A stretch of 64,000 bases of DNA from a virus (taxonomy: Duplodnaviria; Caudoviricetes): IMG/VR virus record IMGVR_UViG_3300027983_002388, one strand, 5' to 3'. The position numbers were made by a program, and so were the translations under genes. Below are positions 31,043 through 51,785 of the stretch, one piece after another. Position 1 is the stretch's first letter, and every line of letters begins with the position of its first letter. A model generated the notes under the pieces. The model was not told the origin of the DNA. It ran no database searches and worked only from the letters and a program-made list of their open reading frames with translations.

Positions 31043-31132
31043 GGGAGTAAGGCGACTGCTGGTTGTGTCGCACCTGCCTGTAAAGCAGGGCCTACAAGGT
31101 AAACATCGCAGGTTCAATTCCTGCTGCTCCCA
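31043..31132 (+). tRNA. tRNA-Tyr(GTA)
   Basis: GGGAGTA/TGCTCCC acceptor; CCTGC-CTGTAAA-GCAGG; GCAGG-TTCAATT-CCTGC; long variable arm. Confidence 0.85.
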
Positions 31133-31204
31133 CTGTGTACGTCAGATTTATTGTTGCGTCCTCACTCTTGTAGTGCGGAGGCAACTAATGAAAGAATAAC
31201 AAAC

Positions 31205-31276
31205 GGATCGGTAGCTGAGATGGAGTATCGCTGGCCTGAAAAGCCGGAGACGAGGATTCGAGCGACTCCCGATCCA
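31205..31276 (+). tRNA. tRNA-Phe(GAA), degenerate D and T stems
   Basis: GGATCGG/CCGATCC acceptor; CTGGC-CTGAAAA-GCCGG; imperfect T stem. Confidence 0.55.
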
Positions 31277-31288
31277 CTGAAAGGAACA

Positions 31289-31849
31289 ATGATGGAACCG
31301 ATTTATTTGCCATCTGCTGGCAACGATATGAGCAGAGTGGTTAACTCTATTTTCGATGAAACGAAGGGTCTTGAATGGCTGACCGAGAGGTCTGCCCGGA
31401 AAGAATACTTCATGTCCACGAAAGACAGAGAGTATAGCTACGGGAACAGACATCAAGGCGACGTAATGTACAGAAGCAAGCCATTCAGTTTTTTAGTGGG
31501 ACAGTTTATGGAGTACATAAACGAAACACAGAAATCTGAATTCAATGTTTGTTTTCTGAACCGCTACGAAAACGAACAACAGCACCTTGGATGGCACGCT
31601 GATGATTTTCCGGGAATGAGAGCCGATCAGTCAATCGCCGTGTTGTCGTTGGGAGCAGAACGGGAAATATGGTGGAAGGAAAAATCCTTCAAAGGAATTA
31701 TTCCACCAGAAAATAAACAACTGTTGGAACACGGCAGCATATGGATTATGCCTGTTGGATTTCAAGATGTTTATCTTCACAAAATTCCAAAACATGGAAA
31801 GCCTTGTGGAGAAAGGATCAGTTTGACATTCAGAAGTTTTGTTGATTGA
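31289..31849 (+). CDS. alkB: AlkB-family 2OG-Fe(II) dioxygenase
   Basis: LNRY...GWHAD...SLG...H.IPK...RISLTFR; true start after tRNA-Phe. Confidence 0.9.
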   Translation: MMEPIYLPSAGNDMSRVVNSIFDETKGLEWLTERSARKEYFMSTKDREYSYGNRHQGDVMYRSKPFSFLVGQFMEYINETQKSEFNVCFLNRYENEQQHLGWHADDFPGMRADQSIAVLSLGAEREIWWKEKSFKGIIPPENKQLLEHGSIWIMPVGFQDVYLHKIPKHGKPCGERISLTFRSFVD

Positions 31850-31946
31850 CGGTAGAAGTCTGTATGTTGTCCACCGGCTTGCCGAGTTCAACGGGACTCT
31901 GAGCTAATGACTCAGACGAAAGATTGATGCTCCGATCAACAAAAAT

Positions 31947-32021
31947 GGCACGGTGATGCAATTTGGCAGACATCTCACGCTTAGAACGTGGGTTCTGTGG
32001 GTTCGAGTCCCACCCGTGTCA
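31947..32021 (+). tRNA. tRNA-Leu(TAG), short variable loop
   Basis: GGCACGG/CCGTGTC; TCACG-CTTAGAA-CGTGG; GTGGG-TTCGAGT-CCCAC. Confidence 0.85.
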
Positions 32022-32037
32022 CTTTCCTGGAAAACAA

Positions 32038-32123
32038 GGGTTCTGTTCCTCATGCCTGACTGTAAATCAGGTGACAAAAAATTTTGAGGCGGCTGTCGAG
32101 GGGTTCAACTCCCTCAGAACCCA
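32038..32123 (+). tRNA. Non-canonical tRNA-Tyr(GTA)-like RNA lacking a D arm
   Basis: GGGTTCT/AGAACCC; CCTGA-CTGTAAA-TCAGG; only ~9 nt where the D arm should be; 25-nt variable region. Confidence 0.6.
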
Positions 32124-32162
32124 CTTCGGCTTTACAGCCGAATTTGATGGTGATAGAATCAT

Positions 32163-32239
32163 GCCCAGGTGATGCAACCTTCGGTAGACATCCGATACTC
32201 AAAATATCGGTTTTACGGGTTCGAGTCCCGTCCTGGGTA
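32163..32239 (+). tRNA. tRNA-Leu(CAA), short variable loop
   Basis: GCCCAGG/CCTGGGT; CCGATA-CTCAAAA-TATCGG; ACGGG-TTCGAGT-CCCGT. Confidence 0.85.
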
Positions 32240-32255
32240 CTTTGCGGAGAATGTG

Positions 32256-32786
32256 ATGGAAGAGAAATGCACGGAGTTGACTCTCGAACAATGTGAATTT
32301 GCTTGCAAGATGGTTTGCCAGTGGATGAATATTTGCGAGGACAATAAGCGTGGATCAAGTTCGGCTGATGTCGATCATTCTGCCCTTTTGCGAAGGATGT
32401 TGATGGGTGGGACGGTTCATAAAAATCCTCCACCAAAAAGATTCAGTTATCCTTGTTGGGGATTGGTTGAACAAGAAGAGATCGAAATCCAAGACATGCA
32501 CGAATATGACATAGACATTGAAGGCATGAAAGGAACTGTGGTTGTCGATCAACATCGTGAATACGAATGGGTGGATAAAGAAAATAAAATCATCAAACAC
32601 ACACGATTGGGCATTGAGTATCAATATTCCGAACGTGAAGTAACACCAGATGCCAGACGTTTACGAAAGGGTTTGAACCCCGAAGACCATAAATACACTG
32701 GTAAATTTTTGAAGAGATTGAATGATCCACCAACAGGAAAAGAAGAAGTGTGGAAAATGCAAGTGAGTGGCTTTTGTTCAGGATGA
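32256..32786 (+). CDS. Hypothetical protein
   Basis: ORF; start placed after the tRNA. Confidence 0.55.
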   Translation: MEEKCTELTLEQCEFACKMVCQWMNICEDNKRGSSSADVDHSALLRRMLMGGTVHKNPPPKRFSYPCWGLVEQEEIEIQDMHEYDIDIEGMKGTVVVDQHREYEWVDKENKIIKHTRLGIEYQYSEREVTPDARRLRKGLNPEDHKYTGKFLKRLNDPPTGKEEVWKMQVSGFCSG

Positions 32787-32940
32787 ACATCAGGCTGACC
32801 CCGGTAGCGTAACTCGCCAATGATCGGTAAGTAACATCATCAAGGAAGATGAAACCACTAAGGAATAAAATGATGAAAAATAATCACGAAAGTTTGGGTA
32901 GCGTCTTTTAAGTGCATTCCGCACTTAGGAGAATCGCTAC

Positions 32941-33393
32941 ATGGCAAAAAAAAGATGGTTCTCGGCATTCCTTCGGTATCCGAGAACAACACAAGAACTA
33001 AGAGCAAACCAAGACCGCAATGATCCCTATGTCCGTGGAAAGAGACGAAACCTTCCCACGGCATGGGACGATCGGTTTGTTCGCAAGCAAAAATCATGGA
33101 AATATCTCGGTCGAGATCATCAATACCGAGAACAAGGTCATGGTTACGAGTGGCATGAATTCCAATACTCGTGGCGTGATACTGAACGGAGAATGATCGC
33201 CAGAACCATCATGGACTGGCTGGAACGACTTGGATGCTTCTACGAAACGATTCGTGGCGGCTTCCGTTGGTTTGGACCAGCATGGTGGATCAAAGGTCAT
33301 TGTCGCTGTTGTTATACACAATTGATTTCTGACACCCAATCCGAAGAGTTCGGAGATTGGTGTCCAAACCCGGACTGTTGCTTCCTTAACTAA
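32941..33393 (+). CDS. Basic hypothetical protein (PRTTQE...LPTAWDD...SWK)
   Basis: ORF with SD; Arg/Trp-rich; C-terminal Cys cluster. Confidence 0.6.
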   Translation: MAKKRWFSAFLRYPRTTQELRANQDRNDPYVRGKRRNLPTAWDDRFVRKQKSWKYLGRDHQYREQGHGYEWHEFQYSWRDTERRMIARTIMDWLERLGCFYETIRGGFRWFGPAWWIKGHCRCCYTQLISDTQSEEFGDWCPNPDCCFLN

Positions 33394-33470
33394 GAGAAAA
33401 ACCATGAACAAATTCACTCAAATCCTTGGACTCATCAAACCTATTACCCAAACCCATTATGGAGGGAACG

Positions 33471-33770
33471 ATGAGAAGGTGGAACGAGGATTACAAGATC
33501 ACTCTGCGTGAGTGGAAAAAGCACCGTCGCTCTCATGTTGAGAGTAACAAAAGCTGGATAAATCGCATCGGAGTCAGCGCCTATGTCGTTGATTGTGAGC
33601 GTGATGAACAAAAAGGTCGATTCCGTAAGAAAGACGCTTTCGATTGTGGCAATACGCAGTGCAGAATTTGTCACAGCGACAAGTATCCCAAGCGGGAAAA
33701 ACACGAACACGAATTGAAGTCCGATGTGGACTTCAAAGAACAACTCAAAGAGTTGCGTGGTGAAGAGTAA
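33471..33770 (+). CDS. Basic hypothetical protein with CGNTQCRIC Zn motif
   Basis: SD GGAGG; ORF. Confidence 0.6.
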   Translation: MRRWNEDYKITLREWKKHRRSHVESNKSWINRIGVSAYVVDCERDEQKGRFRKKDAFDCGNTQCRICHSDKYPKREKHEHELKSDVDFKEQLKELRGEE

Positions 33771-33804
33771 AAGAAGACGAAGGTTTGAAAAAGCCTTCGT
33801 TTGA

Positions 33805-33881
33805 GTCCAAGTAGGCAAACCTCCGGCAAAGCCGCCAGATCGAGAGTCTGGTGTTTGTGGGTTCGACTCCCACCTTGGACA
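33805..33881 (+). tRNA. tRNA-Leu(GAG), short variable loop, atypical anticodon loop (TC-GAG-AG)
   Basis: GTCCAAG/CTTGGAC; CCAGA/TCTGG; GTGGG-TTCGACT-CCCAC. Confidence 0.75.
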
Positions 33882-33958
33882 TTTTCTAAATCCTGTTCAA
33901 CAATCAACGAGAATTGGGAGTGTCAGACAATGCAGTTAGAAAACGGCAGTTAGAAAAC

Positions 33959-34032
33959 GGCTCAGTAGGCAATCGGCAGACCACCCAGGCTTAAACCCAG
34001 GGATGCTGTGAGTTCAAATCTCACCTGAGCCA
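33959..34032 (+). tRNA. tRNA-Leu(TAA), short variable loop
   Basis: GGCTCAG/CTGAGCC; loop CTTAAAC; GTGAG-TTCAAAT-CTCAC; one A-A mismatch in the anticodon stem. Confidence 0.8.
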
Positions 34033-34047
34033 CTTGATTTTTAATAC

Positions 34048-34129
34048 GGCTTTGTGGTGAAATTGGCAAACGCACAGCACTCAAAATGCTGCGTCGAAAG
34101 ACTTGTGGGTTCGAGTCCCACCAAAGCCA
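34048..34129 (+). tRNA. tRNA-Leu(CAA), canonical long variable arm
   Basis: GGCTTTG/CAAAGCC; CAGCA-CTCAAAA-TGCTG. Confidence 0.92.
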
Positions 34130-34247
34130 CTGTTTCGATTTCTGGATCTGGCTCTTACTCGTTGTGAGTAGAAACACCTTTTTTTGGTGGGGTTATAGAA
34201 GTCAAACCTCCAACGGTGATCTCGTAAAGATCACAGGAGAAAGTAAA

Positions 34248-35420
34248 GTGAAGAAAGTCCACATCAATGTCGGAACGATTGGTCACATTGACCACGGGAA
34301 GACGACTCTGACAGCAGCAATTCTCGCTGTTCAGTCCGAGAAGGGTTACGCAAAAAAGAAAGCATACGGCGACATCGCCAAGGGCGGCACCGTTCGTGAC
34401 GTTACCAAAACGGTAACGATCACCACGTCGCACGTTGAGTATGAGACGGATACCCGTCACTATGCTCACATTGACTGCCCCGGTCACGCCGACTATGTAA
34501 AAAATATGATTACCGGGGCTGCTCAAATGGACGGCGCTGTATTGCTCGTCAATGCAGCAGACGGTCCTATGCCTCAGACGAAAGAGCATATTCTGCTCGC
34601 TCGTCAGGTGGGCGTGCCGGATATTGTAGTATTCCTCAATAAGTGCGATCTTGTCAAAGACGAAGAATTGCTGGAACTGGTCGAGATGGAAACAAGAGAC
34701 TTGCTGACGAAGTATGGCTTCGACGGCGAGAAGACTCCGTTTATCCGTGGAGCAGCAAAACCTGCCTTGGATAATCCTGCTGATCCCGCAGCAAGCAAGT
34801 GTATTGTAGAATTGTTGGCGGCTCTGGATTCTTATATTCCTGACCCCAGCCGTTCTATCGACCGTCCCTTCTTGATGCCCGTCGAAGGTGTTCACAATAT
34901 CGAAGGTCGTGGCTGCGTAGTCACGGGCAAGATCGAGCAAGGAACCATCACGGTCGGAACCAAAGTTGAAATCCTTGGGTTGACTGATATTCTGGAGTCA
35001 GTTGTCACCAGCGTCGAGGCTTTCAATAAGCAACTGGAATATGGAGAAGCTGGACAGAATGTCGGTTTGCTGCTGAGAGGCATCAAGGCCGATCAAGTTC
35101 AGCGTGGACAGGTTGTGGCACAACCACGAAGCATCAAGCCTCACACCAAGTTCAAGAGCGAAATTTACGTCTTGGGCAAGGATGAGGGCGGGCGTCACAC
35201 CCCGATCTTCAATGGTTACAAGCCACAGTTCTTCTTCAGAACTACCAACGTCACCGGCCTTGTCCAAATGCCGGAAGGAATTGAGTTGGTCATGCCGGGC
35301 GAGAACACTTGCCTGTTTATCACCCTGGATAAGCCGATTGCTATCGAAAAAGGTAGTCACTTCGCCATTCGTGAGGGTGGTATGACAGTCGGTTCTGGCG
35401 TCGTGACGGAATTGCTGTAA
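34248..35420 (+). CDS. tuf: Elongation factor Tu (Planctomycetota-type switch I)
   Basis: [20 protein letters not shown]; GTG start with GGAGA SD. Confidence 0.97.
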
Positions 35421-35443
35421 AACGGCTGTAAAACGGCTGTAAA
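35414..35443. repeat. 11-bp tandem repeat GCTGTAAAACG (~2.7 copies)
   Basis: Direct reading; overlaps the tuf stop codon and the -35 box. Confidence 0.85.
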
Positions 35444-35485
35444 GCAAAGCGAAAGCGTGGTATAATCAAATACCACGCTTTCGCT
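35438..35485 (+). promoter_or_regulatory. Promoter TGTAAA-N12-CGTGG-TATAAT inside a perfect 16-bp inverted repeat
   Basis: AGCGAAAGCGTGGTAT (35448-35463) / ATACCACGCTTTCGCT (35470-35485). Confidence 0.75.
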
Positions 35486-35528
35486 GCAACGGTTAAGAAA
35501 TTTCCATTGGCACGCACCAGGCATAAAC

Positions 35529-35810
35529 ATGCGTCGAGAAACAACCATCATCGGCATGATAACAATCATTTTCATGATTGTCGTTTTCTTCATTTCAAGT
35601 GCCACTAATTCCAGCGATCAAGCCAAAATACAAAAATGGGCTAGTGACAACAAATATGTCATAGTCACATCTGAACGGTGTTTTTTCTACTCCGGCCCTT
35701 ATTGGACGACTAAAAACACTCGGATTTACAAAGTCGATTTGGAAAATAACAAAACCCATTGGTTCCGATTCGGACTTTGGGGAACCGACACCGACATCGA
35801 GGAATATTGA
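35529..35810 (+). CDS. Membrane-anchored hypothetical protein
   Basis: N-terminal TM helix. Confidence 0.6.
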   Translation: MRRETTIIGMITIIFMIVVFFISSATNSSDQAKIQKWASDNKYVIVTSERCFFYSGPYWTTKNTRIYKVDLENNKTHWFRFGLWGTDTDIEEY

Positions 35811-36947
35811 TGCGAAGACAAAGACCCACCGCTTGTGAAATCCGAAAACAAATGAACACTGCCGATAGCACCCACCAAAGGTGTGTGTCGGATTATTCAT
35901 TTGGTAAATTCAAAATGAAACCGGGAGAAGTAATTCTTACTTGGCACGACAAAGAAAACGACAAGCACAATAGAATGGTATTGACCCACCGTTCAACTGG
36001 CGTCCAAATATTTGGATATATCAAGCCAGGATACAACCCATCCAAAAAAGAGATCAGCGAAATGCGAAAGCATTTTATCAAAAAGAATTTGTCTTTACTT
36101 GAAAGCATGACGAGGCGACACCTTAGAGCGTGCATGGCAAGTCAGTATGGACCCATTCCAAAAGGACAGTTCGATGAGTAGAAATCAAATCAAACGATGT
36201 GCCTGTGGGCTACCGCTTCATTATCGAGACAAAACCAAAGAAGCGGAAGTTCAAGGAGAGATCGACAAGCTCGGAGAATGGATACCATTCAGCATTGGTC
36301 AAAGTCGATATTTGGTGCAAAGACACTACAAAGAACTGCACGGCCTTAATCCAAATGAAGTTCCTGCTTTAATGAAGCAAGGAATTATCAGAATAAACAA
36401 GGATTAAAGTCGATATGAACACCTACTCCAACGAACTCATGCAAAAACTGACAAATCAGTTTTAGGCGACATTTTACAATTGGTGCCAAACATTTGGAAG
36501 TTGCTAGTTTTTCGACCTTTTCATGAATTGGCAATAGCATCAATCACAGACAATGTTGCATCATCAGATATTGTCGCTAGAGCTTTGGGCAATTTTTTTA
36601 GCTCCCAAGATTTTCTTTGTTGGTTGGCAATAATTCAGACGCCCAATTATACATTTCAGATAATAAATCTCCAAATTGTTTGGCTCGACTTTGATTACAA
36701 AAATGTAAAGGATAATTGCTATGAGGAAAATGCCAATTAGAACAACCATCCCACTTAATGTGTCCAATTAACAATGGATCTTCATCAGAAACTTCTTGAT
36801 TTCCTTGGTAAATAAAAAAATTAACAATATGTCCATTTTTATGCAAGTCAGCCAACACCACATAAGGATCTTCTGATCCTTGAAAGAACTCTCTTAATGT
36901 ATTCGACATTTCATTGTCTTTCTAAATTTATTTTATTGTCTAATGGC

Positions 36948-37208
36948 TCATACAACAATTCTTACGTTTCCGGGTGGCTTTCTAGGAGCCATCTCTCCCT
37001 GTCCCAAAATCATTACAGAGTGTCCAACTTGTGTTAGGTGAAACTCTAAAGTCACATCCTCAACCATCCAAAGTCCCATGCCAGTTCCATTACAGTGTGG
37101 ACAAGGTCCATCAACCAAACCACTGCAATTACAATTTCCACAAGATTTCTTTACGAAAAAATCCATATCCATCTCCGCCACAAGTGTAACAAAAATCACA
37201 TGGCACAA
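36948..37208 (-). CDS. DnaJ-like Zn-finger/C-terminal fragment (uncertain)
   Basis: CGNCNCSG...CPHCNGTG...GQG...PGNVRIVV. Confidence 0.4.
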   Translation of the reverse strand: MCHVIFVTLVAEMDMDFFVKKSCGNCNCSGLVDGPCPHCNGTGMGLWMVEDVTLEFHLTQVGHSVMILGQGEMAPRKPPGNVRIVV

Positions 37209-37481
37209 AATCGCTCAGTGGAAGAAAGAATGAACATTTTGGCTCTTATCCCAATTGGTGGGATTGCCGGTATGCCGCCATATACGCCACATGCAGGATC
37301 AGGAAAAATCGCCTGTGCTGGCTGTGGTATAGCTTGTTGGATCGGTCCTCGTCAAACCGTGATGAAGCTCGAAAAGCCTGAACTCCCGGCATTGTGCATG
37401 TTGTGTGCGTGCAAAGAAATACAAAAACAAAAAGAATCAGACGAAGAAGTAACTGCATCCGTGATTCCATTAGGTGATTGA
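37200..37481 (+). CDS. Small Cys-motif protein
   Basis: CAGC...C and CMLC motifs. Confidence 0.5.
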   Translation: MAQNRSVEERMNILALIPIGGIAGMPPYTPHAGSGKIACAGCGIACWIGPRQTVMKLEKPELPALCMLCACKEIQKQKESDEEVTASVIPLGD

Positions 37482-38134
37482 ATATGCAAAGAGATTATAG
37501 TTGGAAGCCATCCTGGAGTCCTATTCACAAAGAATGTGACGTTCACCCTCATGTCCCTGCGGAACGTGCTGATTTATTTGAGGTCGCCGATGGCGGCTCT
37601 ACTGAATATGAAGTCTTAAATTGGCTTCATTCCACAATCCGAGTATTGAAGCCACAACTGGTTCTTGAAACTGGTGCGTGGGAGGGTTTCGGAACAACCG
37701 CCCTAGCTCATGCTTGCAAACTCAATGGATTCGGCAAGGTGCATTCTCTTGAAGTTCTGCCGCCACAATGCGTGCGACTTCAGACGGTTCTTGAAGAAGA
37801 ACACTTGCTTAAATGGGTTGAAGTGCATTGCGTAGATTCGCTTGAATTCTTGCAACAATCTAATATTATCTTCGATATTGGATTCTTTGATAGCCTGACC
37901 GAGATCAGGCCCATCGAATGCGAGATAATGCTCAACAAAGGCACGTTGAGAAACCTTGCTGTCTTCCACGACACATCGCCTCATCGGTCTGAATCCGCTC
38001 CTGATTGGACCAGCACAGAAACTCAAAACACATACAGAGAAAAGGTCTTGGCCTTAGCCAAACATCCCCGATGTACTGGCTACTATGATTCCCCACTATC
38101 CAGAGGATTCATGGCCTTGTTCTTAAAAGGCTAA
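37478..38134 (+). CDS. Class I SAM-dependent methyltransferase (Methyltransf_24-like)
   Basis: [10 protein letters not shown]...SLE...FDIGFFDS...FHD. Confidence 0.75.
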
Positions 38135-38135
38135 C

Positions 38136-38473
38136 ATGAAAAACGTAGTTGTAATGTTCCCATATCCATCGGGTGCCGGTTTACACTTGGGGCATTACTA
38201 TAATTATGCCATTATCGACAGCTATTGTCGATTTCTGCGATATGAGGGCGAAGAAGTCTTTCAGCCTTTTGGATATGACGCATTCGGACTGCCTGCCGAG
38301 ATCAAGGCTTGAAGAATTCAGTACGAAATTATTTGTTCTTTTGGAAAGTGAACAAGGTGGTCAGCACATTCATGACCTTCTATAACGACAACAAAGACAA
38401 AAAAGTCTCGCCCGCCAACGCCAAAGAGATTGTCCAGTTGCTTCAAAATTTTGCACCTGGATTTAATCTTTGA
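38136..38473 (+). pseudogene. leuS: Leucyl-tRNA synthetase relic: HIGH-motif N-terminus plus out-of-frame anticodon-binding-domain fragment
   Basis: 38136-38312 [14 protein letters not shown]...[12 protein letters not shown]; other frame to 38473 VNKVVSTFMTFYN...LLQNFAPG. Confidence 0.8.
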
Positions 38474-39189
38474 AAATATCGTTCTGCACAACTTGTATGG
38501 GCAGGGTTCATCATCTAATGAGAACCCTGCCCATAAATATTCATGTCGCTCCAGATTGCGAATTTGTGTTGCTTAACTATGGCAGCAAAGATGGAATGCA
38601 CGAGTGGGTCCGAGACAATATGCGTCCTTGGATAAATCGAGGAACCATCAAGTATTATAGAACTCAGCTTCCTGAATACTTCGTGGCGACACATGCCAAA
38701 AACATTGCACATCGCCAAGCGACCGGCGATATTCTTTGCAATTTAGACGCAGACAATTTCTTGATTGACGGCTTTGTTGAATTGGTTAAAAAGACCATGA
38801 GCGACAAACAAAGCATTATGACTGCTCCTATATTTGATATGTTCAATATGTCGGGCAGTTGCGGAAAGATAGCAGTTCATCGAGAGCATTTCTATAGCGT
38901 AAATGGATACAACGAAGACATCAATTTGGGATGGGGGTGGGATGATATTGATTTTGAATTACGTGCAGCCATGCACAACAAATTGAAATACGCTCAAACT
39001 CCCGTGAAGTTTTGCCGAGTAATAGACCACGACGAATCAGATCGAGTCAAGAACTTTCGCACCAAAAACTTGAAGGATTCCCAACGGACAAATGGGGAAC
39101 TGTTGGAAACGGTGAAAAATACTAGAAATTACGTTGTCAACAAAAACAGAGAGTGGGGAGTTGCATTAGATTTATCCAGTGATATATAA
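38470..39189 (+). CDS. GT2/GT7-like glycosyltransferase
   Basis: NLDAD; VNGYNED...GWGWDDIDF. Confidence 0.75.
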   Translation: MKISFCTTCMGRVHHLMRTLPINIHVAPDCEFVLLNYGSKDGMHEWVRDNMRPWINRGTIKYYRTQLPEYFVATHAKNIAHRQATGDILCNLDADNFLIDGFVELVKKTMSDKQSIMTAPIFDMFNMSGSCGKIAVHREHFYSVNGYNEDINLGWGWDDIDFELRAAMHNKLKYAQTPVKFCRVIDHDESDRVKNFRTKNLKDSQRTNGELLETVKNTRNYVVNKNREWGVALDLSSDI

Positions 39190-39192
39190 GAC

Positions 39193-39417
39193 ATGATTAA
39201 ATTCAAAGACTGGATGCAGACAAGAGAAGCCAAACTCCGAGAAATGGGGAGTGGTCCATATATTGGAAACTGCACTGACACCAGTGATTATCAAGTAATT
39301 GGTGCTTGTAGCGATCAAAATTCCGAAGAAAAGAACAAGGCGTATCGAAAAGGTGGCGTAGACCACAAAAAAGTCCACAAGCATTCCGACAAGATCAGAT
39401 CAAAAGTCGGTATATAA
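39193..39417 (+). CDS. Small protein with CTS-like N-terminus (MIKFKDWMQTRE)
   Basis: TATATAAG 10 nt upstream of ATG. Confidence 0.55.
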   Translation: MIKFKDWMQTREAKLREMGSGPYIGNCTDTSDYQVIGACSDQNSEEKNKAYRKGGVDHKKVHKHSDKIRSKVGI

Positions 39418-39420
39418 GGT

Positions 39421-39840
39421 ATGATGACGTTCAAGGAATTCGTGGGATCGCAAGAAGTACAGCCGCAGGTGCAACAGCCTCAAGCGGCTGGTTCTCAGCA
39501 ATCATCCAAATGGAAGGCCACAAAAGATGAAATTGTGGGCTACTGGAAGAACTTACGTCCCGACACACCCGTCCAAATGCGAGCCATTGATTACACCCAT
39601 AAGGGATCAACATATGGCGAAGACGGAATGCGACTAACAGGCAGTCCGCAGTTTATTGCATCAATTTTAGCCAGAATGAAAGAGTTGTTGACTTACGAAA
39701 CTCCAACAACCAAACTCGCCGTTACATATCGACAAACAGAGTCCCCCAGCAAGATGGCAATGGGACAAAGTAAAACTTCCTACGTCTTTTACGTTGCTGC
39801 TCGTCAACGTGGCGGCAAAACTCAAATCGCACCCAACTAG
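39421..39840 (+). CDS. Protein with CTS-like N-terminus (MMTFKEFVGSQE)
   Basis: TATATAAG 10 nt upstream of ATG. Confidence 0.6.
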   Translation: MMTFKEFVGSQEVQPQVQQPQAAGSQQSSKWKATKDEIVGYWKNLRPDTPVQMRAIDYTHKGSTYGEDGMRLTGSPQFIASILARMKELLTYETPTTKLAVTYRQTESPSKMAMGQSKTSYVFYVAARQRGGKTQIAPN

Positions 39841-39917
39841 ACTTGATTTTATCTTTCGTGATTGTATACTCATAACTTGTGTTGAGAACCAACCAAGGCC
39901 CCAAAGGAGAGTTTACA

Positions 39918-40370
39918 GTGAGTATGAAAATTGCGTGGACGATTGCCGGAATTGTCGGAATTTCCGCTCTGTGTGTGGGATCAATGACGTGGCACGCCTG
40001 GAGTGTCCAGAAGGAAAACCAACGACTCTCGCTGGTGAATTACATCTATGTTGCGGAGCATCGTATTCTCAAGGATGAAATCTCTGAACTTGCATCTAAG
40101 CCAACATACGATCAGGGATATAAAGACGCTCTGATCCGCATCGGCGGACCACAAGTCCCTGGTGCATACCAAGATGGCTGGGACGACGCTCAGAAGCTCT
40201 GTGGTGCGGAAAACAATTACGCAGACGGGTATCACGCTGCAATCCAACAGTTTGGATATACTAAGACTACAACAATGGCTCGTTGGTTGGTTCCCGAACC
40301 AAAAGACAAGGCTATTGCTGCGGATAAGTCCAACAAGGAAGGCATCACGCCTGCTAAATTGGAAAAGTAA
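39918..40370 (+). CDS. Membrane-anchored protein
   Basis: Signal-anchor helix; repeated YxxGY motifs. Confidence 0.55.
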   Translation: MSMKIAWTIAGIVGISALCVGSMTWHAWSVQKENQRLSLVNYIYVAEHRILKDEISELASKPTYDQGYKDALIRIGGPQVPGAYQDGWDDAQKLCGAENNYADGYHAAIQQFGYTKTTTMARWLVPEPKDKAIAADKSNKEGITPAKLEK

Positions 40371-40450
40371 TCCAAACCGCTATAGAAAGCATTGGCTACA
40401 GTAAATCGGGTGATTTAGGGAAAGGTACGTCCTTTCCTTTGGGGAAACAA

Positions 40451-40555
40451 AGACAGCCAGGATGTTGGCCTAGAAGTAGCCAACATTCAAAGAGTAGGGT
40501 TACACAGGGACTTCCTGTTAACGGACCCTTTTGGTGTAATAACACACTGGCCGAG
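40451..40555 (+). ncRNA. 23S rRNA GTPase-associated-centre (H42 distal/H43/H44) mimic with a 38-nt hairpin insertion
   Basis: AGACAGCCAGGATGTTGGCCTAGAAGTAGCCAACATTCAAAGAGT-[38 nt]-GTGTAATAACACACTGGCCGAG; compensatory changes. Confidence 0.85.
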
Positions 40556-40593
40556 CCACCCAACACTCGACACTGGCAATGCTGGTGCCTGGA

Positions 40594-40636
40594 GAGCATG
40601 TCGCCGACGAAGGCTTAGGCGACATGCTCATTTTTT
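40594..40636 (+). terminator. Intrinsic terminator after the rRNA-mimic RNA
   Basis: GAGCATGTCGCC/GGCGACATGCTC + T6. Confidence 0.85.
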
Positions 40637-40651
40637 GAAAAGAAAGATGAA

Positions 40652-40834
40652 ATGATAGCTTGTATTTGCGGTGGATTTTTGGAACTAGGTTACATCCTAG
40701 TGATGGCAATTATTTCTATTTCGGGAGCAATATTTGGCACCAACTGGTACAATACAGCACGATATAAAAAGTACATAAAATACAAAGACAAACACAAAGG
40801 CTGTGGTTGCGACTGTCACAAAGAAGACGAGTAG
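40652..40834 (+). CDS. Small membrane protein with Cys/His tail
   Basis: TM helix; HKGCGCDCH. Confidence 0.55.
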   Translation: MIACICGGFLELGYILVMAIISISGAIFGTNWYNTARYKKYIKYKDKHKGCGCDCHKEDE

Positions 40835-40837
40835 TGC

Positions 40838-40919
40838 GGCCCTGTGGTGGAATTGGAATACACATGGGACTTAAAATCCCACGCCGAAAGGATTGCGGGT
40901 TCGAGTCCCGCCAGGGCTA
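40838..40919 (+). tRNA. tRNA-Leu(TAA), canonical long variable arm
   Basis: GGCCCTG/CAGGGCT; TGGGA-CTTAAAA-TCCCA. Confidence 0.92.
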
Positions 40920-40922
40920 CGT

Positions 40923-40951
40923 TTTACAAGATGCCTAAAACGTGGTAAAAC
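40923..40951 (+). promoter_or_regulatory. Promoter TTTACA-N12-CGTGG-TAAAAC
   Basis: Window consensus with imperfect -10. Confidence 0.5.
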
Positions 40952-40952
40952 T

Positions 40953-41033
40953 GGCCGAGTGGTGGAATGGCATACACGATGGTTTTAGGAACCATTGCCG
41001 CAAGGCTTGCAGGTTCAAGTCCTGTCTCGGTCA
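40953..41033 (+). tRNA. tRNA-Leu(TAG), canonical long variable arm
   Basis: GGCCGAG/CTCGGTC; ATGGT-TTTAGGA-ACCAT. Confidence 0.92.
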
Positions 41034-47827: not shown

Positions 47828-48370
47828 ATGAGCGAAAAAAAGTCAACAAGGGATGATTTTCGTAATGCCGTATTCAAACGGGATGGCTATGCCTGCGCTA
47901 TGTGCGGGCATAAACCAGAAAACGTCAATGAATTAGACGCCCACCACATTACAGATAGAACCTACATGCCATTCGGTGGATATTGTGCCGCCAATGGCAT
48001 TTCGCTTTGTACAGATCGCTGCAAGAAGGAATCTTGGCTGGGTTCTTCGCTCGATTGTCACCAGAAGGCAGAACACCTTCACGCTACCGGAATTGAATTT
48101 CCGGGATATGCTCCAGTGAACCTTTATGCTAGAATCAAGTCTTCCTATAAACAGGCTTATTCGCACAGTCTCAAGCTAGAGATCACAGCCAATAGAGCCG
48201 ACGCAATGATGGCCGTCATTGACGTAATCTCCAAAAAAGAATTGGAGGTATGTCTTCGCTTGTGTGAAAACACCAGCCCGGAGACATGGGAGTTAACTTG
48301 TGACGAACTAAGTGAGTGGGAACCCCTCAATAGAACTTACGGAAAAGGTCGCTATGTCCCTGACAAATGA
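47828..48370 (+). CDS. HNH endonuclease
   Basis: VFKRDGYAC..CG...DAHHI...NGISLC..CH. Confidence 0.8.
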   Translation: MSEKKSTRDDFRNAVFKRDGYACAMCGHKPENVNELDAHHITDRTYMPFGGYCAANGISLCTDRCKKESWLGSSLDCHQKAEHLHATGIEFPGYAPVNLYARIKSSYKQAYSHSLKLEITANRADAMMAVIDVISKKELEVCLRLCENTSPETWELTCDELSEWEPLNRTYGKGRYVPDK

Positions 48371-49445
48371 ACAGAAAGATGTCCTGAAGCTCTTAGTGGG
48401 CAATATGGACAACCACCAGCAGCAAACTCTTGGTGGATATGCGGGGACAGGAAAATCAACAATTATTCGAGTGATGCTCGACGCCCTTCAACGAAAAGGG
48501 CGATATTTTTGCGCAGCCGCATTTACCGGCAAAGCCACGAACGTATTGCGCAAAAAGGGAATGAATGCCAATACGATTCACAGCACGATATACCAGCCGT
48601 ACAAAGACGAGCATGGCGAAACCGTGTGGTTCTTAGCTGACAAAACTGACTTAGTGTCCAAGGGCATTGACGGCTTCATTATTGATGAAGCGTCTATGGT
48701 GAGCAAGGAAATACACGACGATCTTATGTCGTTTGGCCTGCCAATTATCTATGTTGGCGATCACGGTCAACTTGAGCCTATTGGCACCAAATTCAACCTT
48801 ATGCAAAAGCCAATGTATAAGCTGGAGACGGTTCATCGAAATGCTGGTGAGATTGCATATTTTGCCGAGCATCTTCGCAAGGGCAATTCTGCCAATTCCT
48901 TCATGGGAGCAACGAAGGTTCAGATTGTTCAAGAAAAAGCAATTGAGGATCGACACCTTGCTGCCGTCGATCAAATCATCTGCGCCTTCAATAAGACTCG
49001 TGTGCAACTCAACGAGCGTGTGCGTATCGAGAAAAAGATTCAATATACATTCATTGCCAAAGGCGAGAAGGTCATTTGTTTAAGGAACAATAAGAAGCAG
49101 GGTTTGTTTAATGGGATGCAAGGCGTTGTCCAGAAAATCCACAAGAACGACCGCTTTGACTTTATATCGGATGGCAACTTCTTCGAGAAGGTCCATTACG
49201 ATCCTGACCAGTTTGGAAAAGACTCAAATAAGTTTGAGTTTTCCCAGGCAGCAAATCCATTCGATTACGCATACGCCATCACTTGCCATAAGGCTCAAGG
49301 CGACGAATGGGGCAATGTGATCGTATACGAACAGCGATGCGATAAATGGGATAACGTGCGATGGTCTTATACAGCAGCCAGTCGTGCAAAAAACGGACTG
49401 ATCTGGATCGCTGTAGAAGAGTTCCGACCCAACTATCTAGGGTAA
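48354..49445 (+). CDS. RecD/Dda-like SF1B helicase
   Basis: GYAGTGKS, IIDEASMV, GDHGQLEP, YAITCHKAQG. Confidence 0.9.
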   Translation: MSLTNEQKDVLKLLVGNMDNHQQQTLGGYAGTGKSTIIRVMLDALQRKGRYFCAAAFTGKATNVLRKKGMNANTIHSTIYQPYKDEHGETVWFLADKTDLVSKGIDGFIIDEASMVSKEIHDDLMSFGLPIIYVGDHGQLEPIGTKFNLMQKPMYKLETVHRNAGEIAYFAEHLRKGNSANSFMGATKVQIVQEKAIEDRHLAAVDQIICAFNKTRVQLNERVRIEKKIQYTFIAKGEKVICLRNNKKQGLFNGMQGVVQKIHKNDRFDFISDGNFFEKVHYDPDQFGKDSNKFEFSQAANPFDYAYAITCHKAQGDEWGNVIVYEQRCDKWDNVRWSYTAASRAKNGLIWIAVEEFRPNYLG

Positions 49446-49545
49446 TGTTAAAAGAACCAATCAGTAAATGTGCATCGCATTGGGCTGTGGGCGTACTCGA
49501 CACCAATCGTGCCGAATATTTCAAAGCCAAGAATTTGGAGATTAG

Positions 49546-49574
49546 TTTACAGATCGCCGAAATCGTGGTATCAT
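49546..49574 (+). promoter_or_regulatory. Promoter TTTACA-N12-CGTGG-TATCAT upstream of the RNase P RNA
   Basis: Window consensus. Confidence 0.7.
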
Positions 49575-49613
49575 CTATCGCAAAAATCAAGCTCCACGAG
49601 TATGATATAAGGG

Positions 49614-49888
49614 GATGCAACTTGTCGAGTCGTCGCTGTAATCCCCTCAAGGGGTTGTAGAGGAAGTTCTGGACACTACTGCTTTTAAGGTAGGAGCGAA
49701 AACCTCGAAAGGGGCTAATAGTGTTTGAACTACCGAGGGTGCAAGCCATACAGACCAAAATCTCGTAAGAGGTACGCCGGTGAGCAGGGCGTCATCATGG
49801 TCGGGTCGGTGCAGTCCGCAAGGACCGGGGGCAACTCCGAGATAAATGACGACATAGAACAGAATCCAGGCTATGGATAAGTTGCATC
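49614..49888 (+). ncRNA. rnpB: Minimal RNase P RNA (~275 nt)
   Basis: P1 49614-26/49876-88; P2 GTCGTC/GACGAC; CR-I GAGGAAGTTCTGGAC; CR-V ACAGAATCCAGGCTA with P4 covariation. Confidence 0.85.
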
Positions 49889-49915
49889 TCCTTTTCAAGT
49901 CAAAAAGGAGATGTC

Positions 49916-50707
49916 ATGCGTGCCGAAATTGTCCACGTTACGGACCACGCTTTGTTGCGATGGAAAGAACGTGCGTCGAAAACAGGTGAAGTCAACGTAG
50001 AAGAAATCGTTCAGGCTGTAAAAGAATCCAAGGTCATCAAAAAAAACGAACCTTTGCCTTACCCGATGCCTCGTTTAGATGGATCAGTTTACAGCTTCAA
50101 TGCCGGAGTGTTGTTCATTCTCGAATCAGTAACCATTGATGAATATCGACTCGTCACAGTTATCGCCGACGAGCCGACCTATCAACGGATTGCTCGACCG
50201 CCGAAGAAACAACTTAATCCTCGAAAGAGACAGAAATACGAGGAAGTTCAAAAGGTGCAAATCGACATTCCTTGCTTTGAAAGTTTCATCGAAGAACGTC
50301 AATGGTTGACCGACGAGAAACGAAAACTCGAAAGTGAACTGGCAACAACAGCGAAGAAATCTTCCACTCGCAAAGAAATATTGAAGGTGTGGGGCGAGAT
50401 TGAAGCCCGACTCACCGAGAACAAACCTCAATATCTCGAAGAGCGGAAAAAATCAGGAGACGGATATGTTGACTATGGTTCTCTTCTTTTGCAAATTATC
50501 AGAGAGTTAAAAGAAATACGCTCTGAACAACAGGAATTACGTAACCTAATCGAAGGCTCCAATGGACAACAACCGAGATCACCGAGCAATCGGAAAAAAG
50601 CTAGACCTCTTCATGTTCAGCCCTCTATCGCCGGGTTGTCCGATCTGGCTCCCGAAGGGAGTTGTGCTTTATCAGTCTTTGCTGAACCGCATTCGTCAAC
50701 TCAATGA
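49916..50707 (+). CDS. Protein with a RelE/DUF4258-like N-terminal domain (TDHALLRWKER) and coiled-coil C-terminus
   Basis: HAxxR helix, beta meander ending VTVI. Confidence 0.45.
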   Translation: MRAEIVHVTDHALLRWKERASKTGEVNVEEIVQAVKESKVIKKNEPLPYPMPRLDGSVYSFNAGVLFILESVTIDEYRLVTVIADEPTYQRIARPPKKQLNPRKRQKYEEVQKVQIDIPCFESFIEERQWLTDEKRKLESELATTAKKSSTRKEILKVWGEIEARLTENKPQYLEERKKSGDGYVDYGSLLLQIIRELKEIRSEQQELRNLIEGSNGQQPRSPSNRKKARPLHVQPSIAGLSDLAPEGSCALSVFAEPHSSTQ

Positions 50708-51785
50708 AGCCAATGGTTGCCAAGAAGTTCGGACCCCACTTATATGGAAGTCCGAACTTTATGCAACCAGCGGACACCTGGATCACTATGCAAAAAATAT
50801 GTTCTTCGTCAGTGATAAGCCTGCTGGCGAGTCCCACGAAGAAGGACATGAAGATCAGTGCTTAAAACCAATGAATTGTCCTGGGCATATGGAGATATTC
50901 CGCTCGAAACAGTGGAGCTATCGAGACTTGCCTGTTCGATTCGCTGAATATGGTCCTTTACACCGCAATGAAGTTTCTGGTGCCTTGGGTGGGCTAACTC
51001 GCTGTCGTGCATTCTGCCAGGATGACGCCCACATTTTCGTTTCGCCGGACAACCTACAAAGCGAAATCAAACGAATCCTTGTCATGATCGAAAGAGTTTA
51101 CGGATGGTTTGGAATGAAGTTCCGATCCGTACTCAGCACTCGTCCTTATAACTTCATGGGCGAGAAGTTGGTTTGGGATAATGCTGAGGCGAACCTCGAA
51201 GATGCTTTATGCGAAAATGGATTGAAGTTCGAGATTGCCCATAAAGACGGTGCGTTTTATGGTCCAAAAATAGACTTCATTGTGACTGATTCCCTTGGAC
51301 GTGATTGGCAAACAGCAACAATCCAATTGGACTTCCAGTTGCCTCAAAGATTCGGTTGTACCTATACCGACAAGGACGACAAAGAGCAAACTCCAATTGT
51401 CATTCACAGAGCAATATACGGCAGCTTTGAAAGATTCATTGGTGTATTGTTGGAACATACTGACGGGCATCTACCATTATGGTTGGCTCCTGTTGGTGTA
51501 ACCATTGCACCAATCAGCGACAAAGTTGCTGAATACGCTGATGAGATCAAAGAGGTTTTGCTTGCTCATGGAATTCGGTGTGAATGCGATCACTCGAATC
51601 GAACTCTGCAACAGAAGATTGCCATCGGGTACGATAAAAAAGTACCCTACATGGTCATCTTGGGAGAGAAAGAAAAATCCGCAAGAACCGTTACCCTCAA
51701 ACAAATGAGATCAACTGCTGTCGCACAGGAAACCTTATCTTTGGAAGTATTCCTTCCTCAGATGGTCGCACTGGCGAAAGAGTAA
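50562..51785 (+). CDS. thrS: Threonyl-tRNA synthetase lacking the N-terminal TGS/editing domains
   Basis: Starts RDHRAIG; LKPMNCPGH, HRNEVSG, AFYGPKID, IHRAIYGSFERF; anticodon domain present. Confidence 0.95.
   Translation: MDNNRDHRAIGKKLDLFMFSPLSPGCPIWLPKGVVLYQSLLNRIRQLNEANGCQEVRTPLIWKSELYATSGHLDHYAKNMFFVSDKPAGESHEEGHEDQCLKPMNCPGHMEIFRSKQWSYRDLPVRFAEYGPLHRNEVSGALGGLTRCRAFCQDDAHIFVSPDNLQSEIKRILVMIERVYGWFGMKFRSVLSTRPYNFMGEKLVWDNAEANLEDALCENGLKFEIAHKDGAFYGPKIDFIVTDSLGRDWQTATIQLDFQLPQRFGCTYTDKDDKEQTPIVIHRAIYGSFERFIGVLLEHTDGHLPLWLAPVGVTIAPISDKVAEYADEIKEVLLAHGIRCECDHSNRTLQQKIAIGYDKKVPYMVILGEKEKSARTVTLKQMRSTAVAQETLSLEVFLPQMVALAKE

Follow-up and report, generated by a model that had tools for sequence, protein, structure and literature searches.

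Ribonuclease P (RNase P) RNA is, to our knowledge, described only from cells and organelles. Among the described architectures, type B carries helices P5.1, P10.1 and P15.1, and type A is represented by Escherichia coli M1 RNA (gene rnpB; Rfam family RF00010). In the archaeal type T RNA of Thermoproteaceae—a natural RNA in which the catalytic domain is kept but the specificity domain (S-domain) is largely missing—P10 ends in a small loop or is missing, P2 has 3 bp, P15 is shortened and a 2-nucleotide (nt) linker joins P5 and P15 (PMC3579882). A laboratory construct of the E. coli catalytic domain (C-domain) without its S-domain (Eco CP RPR; Mao et al. 2018, PMC5839562) retains cleavage activity at reduced efficiency; a P6-like pairing matters, and P18 is reported to be dispensable for the C-domain alone. 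Large phages, for their part, carry tRNA arrays, synthetases and transfer-messenger RNA (tmRNA) of their own (Al-Shayeb et al. 2020, PMC7162821); the term ‘RNase P RNA’ does not occur in that paper, and a full-text literature search, together with jumbo-phage and RNase P reviews, turned up no description of such an RNA encoded by a virus. Here, we describe an RNase P-like RNA gene of ~285 nt in a 64,000-nt stretch of phage DNA (Caudoviricetes; hereafter, the window). The window is part of the 98,662-nt IMG/VR virus record IMGVR_UViG_3300027983_002388, whose CheckV completeness of ~20% marks it as a fragment of a very large phage; the public runs that contain the stretch are DNA runs from freshwater and estuary metagenomes.

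A first-pass annotation, made from the sequence letters, had proposed a phage-encoded minimal RNase P RNA at this position, to be checked with Infernal against RNase P models. That comparison bore the proposal out: RF00010 (RNaseP_bact_a) aligned end to end (model positions 1–367) with 49617–49889 on the plus strand, scoring 53.7 bits with E-values of 1.4e-15 in an 801-nt region and 3.9e-17 in the whole 98.7-kb record (Infernal with an E-value threshold, in output that names RF00010 and leaves out overlapping matches to other families of its clan). The conserved regions (CR-I, CR-IV and CR-V), the GCAA of J5/15 and the GGGU of L15 all fell on conserved consensus positions of the model. Since the score lies under the family's gathering threshold, a default Rfam scan or curated annotation would miss this RNA; a default scan of the window returned tRNAs only. 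As a control for chance matches, 48 searchable viral records were collected via the bare 15-mer GAGGAAGTTCTGGAC, mostly by chance: 47 had no RF00010 match, and one was a real hit. The strings assigned beforehand to P1, P2, P3, CR-I, CR-IV and CR-V were each found where they had been placed. Moreover, the proposed P4 (TCTGGA/TCCAGG) forms six of six standard pairs, and the proposed 13-bp P1 (GGGGATGCAACTT/AAGTTGCATCTCC) is present and extends further (Table 1).

Table 1 Features of the RNase P-like RNA locus and its neighbours (window coordinates).
Feature	Coordinates	Strand	Remarks
Sigma-70-type promoter	49546–49574	+	–35 TTTACA (49546–49551), 17-nt spacer, extended –10 TGG-TATCAT (49566–49574)
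Putative 5′ leader, promoter to P1	49582–49607	+	~27–35 nt in the window's clade; putative transcription start, from a comparison of upstream flanks
RNase P-like RNA gene	49608–49894	+	Outer limits of P1; ~285 nt
P1	49609–49626 / 49876–49893	+	16–18 bp, –27.8 kcal/mol
P2	49629–49635 / 49847–49853	+	7 bp; paired in 100% of cells; two-sided change in 5 of 7 pairs; recovered by RNAalifold
P3 hairpin	49637–49659	+	9 bp, loop CUCAA; 9 of 9 pairs covary; length varies with lineage
CR-I and P4 5′ strand (GAGGAAGUUCUGGAC)	49660–49674	+	Bulged U retained; partner 49866–49873 within CR-V
P5	49674–49677 (CACU) / 49738–49741	+	4 bp; 100% paired; 3 of 4 pairs covary
P6 pseudoknot	49679–49683 (CUGCU) / 49783–49787 (AGCAG)	+	3′ strand in the P17 loop
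S-domain remnant	49689–49734	+	5-bp helix, 2-bp extension, CR-II-like GAGCGAAAA, P12, CR-III-like CUAAUAGUGUUUGAA
5-bp helix of the remnant	49689–49693 / 49730–49734	+	97.8% paired; 4 of 5 pairs covary
P12	49703–49714	+	4 bp, GAAA (GNRA) loop; 96.8% paired
J5/15 GCAA	49741–49744	+	Overlaps the 3′-terminal G of P5
P15–P16–P17 arm	49745–49810	+	P15, P16 and P17 all covary
P16.1 hairpin	49760–49773	+	Lineage-specific; absent in L002, ~35 nt in L003
L15 GGGU	49803–49806	+	GGU invariant in a 13-sequence alignment
P18	49814–49825	+	GCAA loop; 92.5% paired; 3 of 4 pairs covary; long forms only
P19	49826–49839	+	GCAA loop; 96.3% paired; 5 of 5 pairs covary; long forms only
CR-IV (AGAUAAAUG)	49840–49848	+	Near-invariant across the family
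CR-V (AUAGAACAGAAUCC) and P4 3′ strand	49854–49873	+	Near-invariant across the family; signature also in full-size cellular rnpB
Hairpin	49885–49913	+	Last bases of P1 (CAUCUCCUUUU) can pair with the next gene's ribosome-binding site (AAAAGGAGAUG)
Gene of a 263-amino-acid protein, no assigned name	49916–50707	+	Starts 22 nt past P1; synteny with the RNA within one phage clade
Threonine-tRNA ligase (thrS)	50562–51785	+	TIGR00418, 463.5 bits; profile positions 170–558 of 565

The RNA belongs to a family. Two close relatives (L002 and L003) were reached via the upstream helicase, and a pattern built on the CR-IV/CR-V block retrieved 17 viral stretches. In 11 records of these stretches RF00010 again aligned end to end, over 164–294 nt and with 41–72 bits, likewise below the gathering score; one of these records is a complete genome of 183,648 bp with direct terminal repeats. 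A separate 532.7-kb record, G005, has a 238-nt version. A family model (R1), built from 12 long forms and comprising 225 positions from P2 to the 3′ strand of P4—with P1 tested apart—found 33 copies among the collected loci, including four viral ones missed by RF00010. All span the full model, bar one cut by a contig end, and the window's core (49626–49876) scored 221.3 bits. The family thus numbers at least 33 copies on viral and metagenome contigs, with cores of 141–270 nt, and by sequence comparison the window's copy is of the least reduced class: free-standing, promoter-driven and equipped with the stub helix, P12, P18 and P19. A blastn search with three size classes found no match among cultured phages, as represented by 50,697 GenBank phage records. 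Three of the 33 rows (L337 and, on contigs of metagenome-assembled genomes [MAGs], L229 and L249) are outliers with a more bacterial-like middle section. In L229 (1192–1431; labelled Elusimicrobia) and L249 (1026–1259), CR-I and CR-IV lie only 173 and 169 nt apart, and CR-II and CR-III are bacterial-like, unlike those of the phage family.

Comparison of these copies shows a predicted fold with a complete catalytic domain, made up in the window RNA of P1–P6, P15–P19, CR-I, CR-IV and CR-V. In an Infernal alignment of the 33 sequences (A8; 60 pairs, 1461 pair cells), 97.4% of cells held standard pairs, versus 73.1% after column shuffling and 32–40% when partners were slid. Both sides had changed in 46 of the 60 pairs (31.6 in shuffles, 13–21 with slid partners), and the covariation score of 0.398 was reached by none of 500 shuffles (0.104; slid partners, 0.03–0.06). 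As A8 was fitted to R1, its nested helices are biased toward the model; P4 and P6, which were left out of R1, are therefore independent tests of the fold. The bulged-U P4 formed by CR-I and CR-V has all eight pairs in 33 of 33 sequences, with three of eight covarying and a central pair that is AU in 16, GC in 7, CG in 5 and UA in 5. In the P6 pseudoknot, 94.6% of cells are paired and four of five pairs change on both sides across the same sequences. By eye, P6 takes the form UUGCUCAC/GUGAGCAA in L141, UAGCUCAC/GUGAGCUA in L146 and GUUGAG/CUCAAC in the 164-nt forms, and it is retained in every size class of the phage forms.

P1 lies outside R1 and differs entirely in sequence between lineages. 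Duplexes between a copy's own flanks averaged –18.2 kcal/mol (25 copies), versus –7.6 ± 3.5 for mismatched flanks. From an unfitted MAFFT alignment, RNAalifold recovered P2, P3, P15 and P16 as well as the stub helix, P12 and a covarying 2-bp extension; alignments of distant copies, in which MAFFT misaligns P1 and P3, were kept out of the pair counts. An RNAalifold alternative to P5 was discarded, as it lacks compensatory change, whereas P5 shows it. All catalytic helices sought (P1, P2, P3, P5, P6 and P15–P17), as well as the L15 GGU, were thus found in place.

A promoter of its own, as the first-pass annotation had supposed, precedes the gene and matches the sigma-70 consensus at 10 of 12 positions plus the TG. 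Sequence conservation with L002 and L003 begins exactly at the –35 box, and TTTACA-N17-TGGTAYRAT, its spacer sequence also similar, precedes the RNA in L313, L129, L304, L134 and G005. Altogether, at least eight lineages with unrelated outer flanks share this conserved promoter. The leader holds a second –10-like element (TATGAT, 49601–49606); in L129, L304, L134 and G005 the promoter directly abuts P1, without a leader. A terminator scan found none after the RNA, making read-through probable into the genes of the 263-amino-acid (263-aa) protein and of a threonine-tRNA ligase, whose profile match begins at position 170 and which thus lacks roughly the first 170 positions.

These data bear on whether the locus could be a decaying relic of an acquired host rnpB or a spurious match over coding sequence. 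Such an origin would fit the sub-threshold Rfam score and the open reading frames (ORFs) that overlap the region on both strands (49361–49660, plus; 49279–49758 and 49647–49898, minus). Yet compensatory change is seen in every helix across the 33 copies, the promoter is conserved, and in our sample there is no full-length similarity to full-size cellular rnpB. The overlapping ORFs, moreover, are unconserved and have no Pfam or PHROGs match, and the sole tblastn match of the upstream one is the conserved promoter DNA. The covariation data practically refute the relic and the coding-overlap match, which we regard as scarcely credible; conversely, 49608–49894 is very probably a real, selected gene for an RNase P-type RNA. 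A small ORF considered as a true overlapping gene (49445–49660, inside the listed 49361–49660) was likewise rejected: it lacks conservation upstream of the promoter, and its final codons cross P1–P3.

With type A RNase P RNA, the window RNA shares P1–P5, both pseudoknots (P4 and P6), a P15 internal loop that bears the GGU, P16/P17 and P18, a 7-bp P2 and the conserved regions CR-I, CR-IV and CR-V. It differs in size (~285 nt versus a 367-position model), in lacking P8, P9, P13 and P14, in a P12 reduced to a 4-bp hairpin, in its extra P19 and P16.1, in P4 bases that are invariant in cells and vary in phage forms, and in being encoded by a virus whose record lacks rnpA. For the type B helices P5.1, P10.1 and P15.1 the sequence leaves no room, and the P15 internal loop leads into P16/P17 as in type A. 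The likeness to type T lies in the natural retention of the catalytic domain without most of the S-domain: the short phage forms are equally reduced, and at threshold they, too, escape the existing Rfam models. Type T, however, has an archaeal sequence and architecture and comes from cells with archaeal RNase P proteins, whereas the phage RNA has bacterial conserved regions, a 7-bp P2 and a P5/P15 linker of ~3–4 nt (GCAA minus the P5 G, read from helix coordinates), and the window form retains more of the S-domain (stub helix and P12). The Eco CP RPR construct and the phage family have in common a type A catalytic domain without the S-domain, with P6 kept in all phage size classes (PMC5839562). 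The construct is a laboratory product, whereas the phage forms are a natural, graded series (cores of 141–270 nt) reduced under selection; that the short phage forms lack P18 fits its dispensability in the construct, while the window form retains P18.

What is left of the S-domain is small, as predicted: 60 nt separate the two P5 strands, where the Rfam model has ~140 consensus positions. The full domain, with its P7–P11 cruciform, P12, P13 and P14, is not present, and comparing the sequence with the Infernal alignment and the relatives revealed no counterpart of P8, P9, P13 or P14 in the window RNA. The S-domain gauges how far the cleavage site lies from the tRNA elbow, reading the elbow via interdigitated T-loops with non-canonical pairs (PMC4919913). 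In the window's stub, the strings GAGCGAAAA and UAAUAGUG look like CR-II and CR-III of the small cellular RNAs aligned with it—the T-loop module consists of non-Watson–Crick pairs, which lie outside the reach of covariation. Given that the stub is conserved, carries these strings and belongs to a copy of the least reduced class, it may still read the tRNA elbow.

The CR-IV/CR-V signature is not confined to phages: at least 120 cellular genomes, including Bacteroidota, Patescibacteria and Leptospira, have it too. In 95 of 98 cellular loci measured, CR-I and CR-IV lie 224–358 nt apart; the other three (134, 169 and 173 nt) all sit on MAG contigs, at least two of them shorter than 9 kb. Viral records span 80–195 nt, and the window 180 nt. 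Full-length similarity of the window RNA extends to reduced forms only; with full-size cellular RNAs it shares just the ~35-nt CR-IV/CR-V block, and thus no recent host donor is seen. The two groups also part in P4. The AG of GAGGAA-AG-UC (window 49666–49667, opposite 49870–49871) never changes among 89 distinct cellular RNAs of full size that bear the same CR-IV/CR-V signature, whereas 40 distinct reduced forms have AG, GG, GU, GC, CU, CC or AC there, the opposite strand changing to match.

The first-pass annotation had tied the RNA to the maturation of phage tRNAs, and the setting of the relatives strengthens this link. The smallest forms always adjoin a tRNA gene. The mid-size forms mostly lie within phage tRNA arrays, on the same strand and 0–11 nt from their neighbours (array-embedded copies: L127, L131, L135, L142, L143, L146, L148, L149, L297, L298, L319 and L364), as in L146 with its order tRNA-Cys/RNA/tRNA-Leu. 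The long forms, including the window's, stand outside such arrays. In the window's record, ten tRNA matches (31043–41033; nine exceed Rfam's gathering score of 29 and one scores 24.3) place the phage tRNA genes 8–18 kb upstream of the RNA. All ten tRNAs have discriminator A and none encodes CCA; a CCA-adding enzyme (PF01743) was not found in this record. Their 3′ trailers start with C in nine of ten cases and with CU in eight of ten. By its sequence, this CU could pair (C–G, U·G) with the invariant GG of the L15 GGU; alternatively, it could reflect a 3′-processing signal. The suggestion that the phage tRNAs are atypical found no support: their T arms follow the standard GGUUCRAnUCC in the three alignments shown, and the long variable arms are those of normal class II tRNAs.

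Of these arrays, the one in L135 combines a tmRNA gene with a reduced RNase P-like RNA, the latter between two tRNA-Leu genes (1020–1389, 2177–2369). The RNA-carrying contigs L130 (3246–3318) and L329 (45–115) have unusual tRNAs, one with a CUA anticodon (amber suppressor type; Pyl according to ARAGORN) and one with the four-base anticodon caaa.

No gene for RnpA, the protein partner, had been seen in the window, and a profile search agreed: PF00825 had no match in five carrier records, the window's own and four others (together G000, G005, G049, G054 and G062), two of the five being complete (G005, 532 kb; G049, 184 kb). The same search was positive in 10 of 14 control genomes. The window RNA retains P2/P3, P15, CR-IV and CR-V, which we take to be the regions contacted by RnpA. 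Because the phage lacks rnpA and these parts are kept, host RnpA would be the likeliest partner, though as to its identity we see the chances as even.

We therefore favour, as the probable reading, a working RNase P ribozyme that matures phage tRNAs with host RnpA; that the window RNA is itself a catalytically active pre-tRNA 5′ endonuclease seems, on its structure, somewhat likelier than the reverse. In this scheme, transcription would start from the RNA's own early-type sigma-70 promoter, and the transcript would fold into the full catalytic domain with the 60-nt specificity stub. It would then trim 5′ leaders off the phage's own tRNA precursors and so sustain tRNA maturation, or enlarge its capacity, while infection proceeds. 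The nearby threonine-tRNA ligase gene, along with the upstream tRNA genes, we counted in favour of a tRNA role.

Several observations weigh against this reading. The Rfam score is about half of the gathering score of 100. P18 has its GCAA loop, but the docking site in P8 is absent, which leaves P18 without its partner. At the P4 position where cells invariably have AG, the window carries GU, compensated on the other strand. Removal of the S-domain lowers the efficiency of the E. coli RNA (PMC5839562). In L396 (1–3372), the block of helicase, 263-aa protein and thrS genes occurs without the RNA, with 58 nt between the first two, so that the RNA is either dispensable there or located elsewhere in that genome. 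Finally, with the window record ~20% complete, the absence of rnpA from this phage rests on the related complete genomes.

Some of the same facts would suit a non-catalytic decoy, an RNA whose RnpA- and pre-tRNA-binding surfaces soak up host RnpA or pre-tRNAs and thereby shut down or redirect host tRNA maturation. The missing rnpA, the retention of the presumed RnpA-contact regions (P2/P3, P15, CR-IV and CR-V) and the departure from cell-invariant P4 positions are all compatible with it, as is the drop in catalytic efficiency upon S-domain loss (PMC5839562). But what the 33 copies keep, with compensatory change, is well in excess of a surface for binding protein: P4 with its bulged U and its geometry, the J5/15 GCAA, the L15 GGU and P6. 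Many copies, besides, sit inside the phage's own tRNA arrays, where a block of RNase P would stop phage tRNA maturation as well. We consider a decoy unlikely.

An active ribozyme might instead act mainly on substrates other than tRNAs, such as polycistronic phage transcripts or host RNAs cut at hairpin-type sites. Most of the elbow-measuring S-domain is gone (PMC4919913), C-domain-only RNAs cut model hairpin substrates (PMC5839562), and the window form lies outside a tRNA array and heads an mRNA. Against this stand the commonest setting of the family, inside tRNA arrays, and the invariance of the GGU that pairs with tRNA 3′ ends; no candidate target motif turned up, and no search for one was made. 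Such a role strikes us as very improbable.

The partner, too, could be other than host RnpA: a phage protein, for instance the 263-aa one encoded immediately downstream, or none at all. The RNA is followed by this gene without an intervening terminator in the window and in L137, L139, L313, L123, L126, L392 and L394, and the two are probably co-transcribed, judging from their arrangement. The tail of P1 is able to pair with this gene's ribosome-binding site (Table 1), and by eye similar pairing can occur in L137, L313, L123 and L126 despite different P1 sequences; this suggests that RNA folding and downstream translation may be coupled. The protein family is small (~20 homologues; 20 matches), with several members on 600–670-kb contigs and a conserved N-terminal domain of ~90 aa beginning MRAEIVHVTDHALLRW. 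No significant Pfam or NCBIfam match was found for the protein and no Pfam domain in its homologues, PHROGs gave marginal matches to families without assigned function only, a comparison with the atlas yielded nothing above chance-level leads to RelE/ParE-like clusters, and a peptide-pattern query retrieved no related viral loci.

The pairing of RNA and gene, however, is confined to one clade, in which the block helicase–RNA–263-aa protein–thrS is conserved; the protein is not nearby in L129, L134, L141–L144 or L146–L149. In L396 the protein occurs but the RNA does not, and an additional ORF lies between the two in L397. Inherited gene order would yield just this pattern of occurrence, and we read the adjacency in that way and not as proof of a functional pair. 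An AlphaFold model of the protein (two helices and a four-stranded sheet; predicted local distance difference test [pLDDT] 60.9, low confidence) gave no sign of an RnpA-like fold. An active ribozyme served by a phage protein, or by none, is in our estimate decidedly unlikely. A broader version—a virus-specific RNase P system whose reduced ribozyme dispenses with bacterial RnpA and works by itself or together with a phage protein, for example the 263-aa one—would turn the series of cores from 270 down to 141 nt into a stepwise loss of the tRNA-measuring domain, with the window form an intermediate that still reads the elbow. We deem it a doubtful conjecture.

An RNA-processing ribozyme would be a new item in the translation repertoire of huge phages, of which the window also has tRNA genes and thrS, and L135 a tmRNA and a miniature RNase P RNA in one array. 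If the RNA is active in the way we favour, as a ribozyme maturing phage tRNAs, large phages would control a tRNA-maturation step assumed to be the host's. The family would then offer a natural graded set of bacterial-type ribozymes without part or all of the S-domain, for which only laboratory constructs and one archaeal family had been available, and the series could reveal what the S-domain, P18 and single P4 bases contribute. Its smallest members would be compact RNase P ribozymes and possible tools. The window's copy—least reduced, stand-alone and with its own promoter—would be a natural starting point for asking which parts still matter.

Farther upstream, an ORF of 180 aa (47828–48370) closely precedes the RecD/PIF1-like helicase gene and, in its N-terminal part, has PHROGs matches to HNH endonuclease families.

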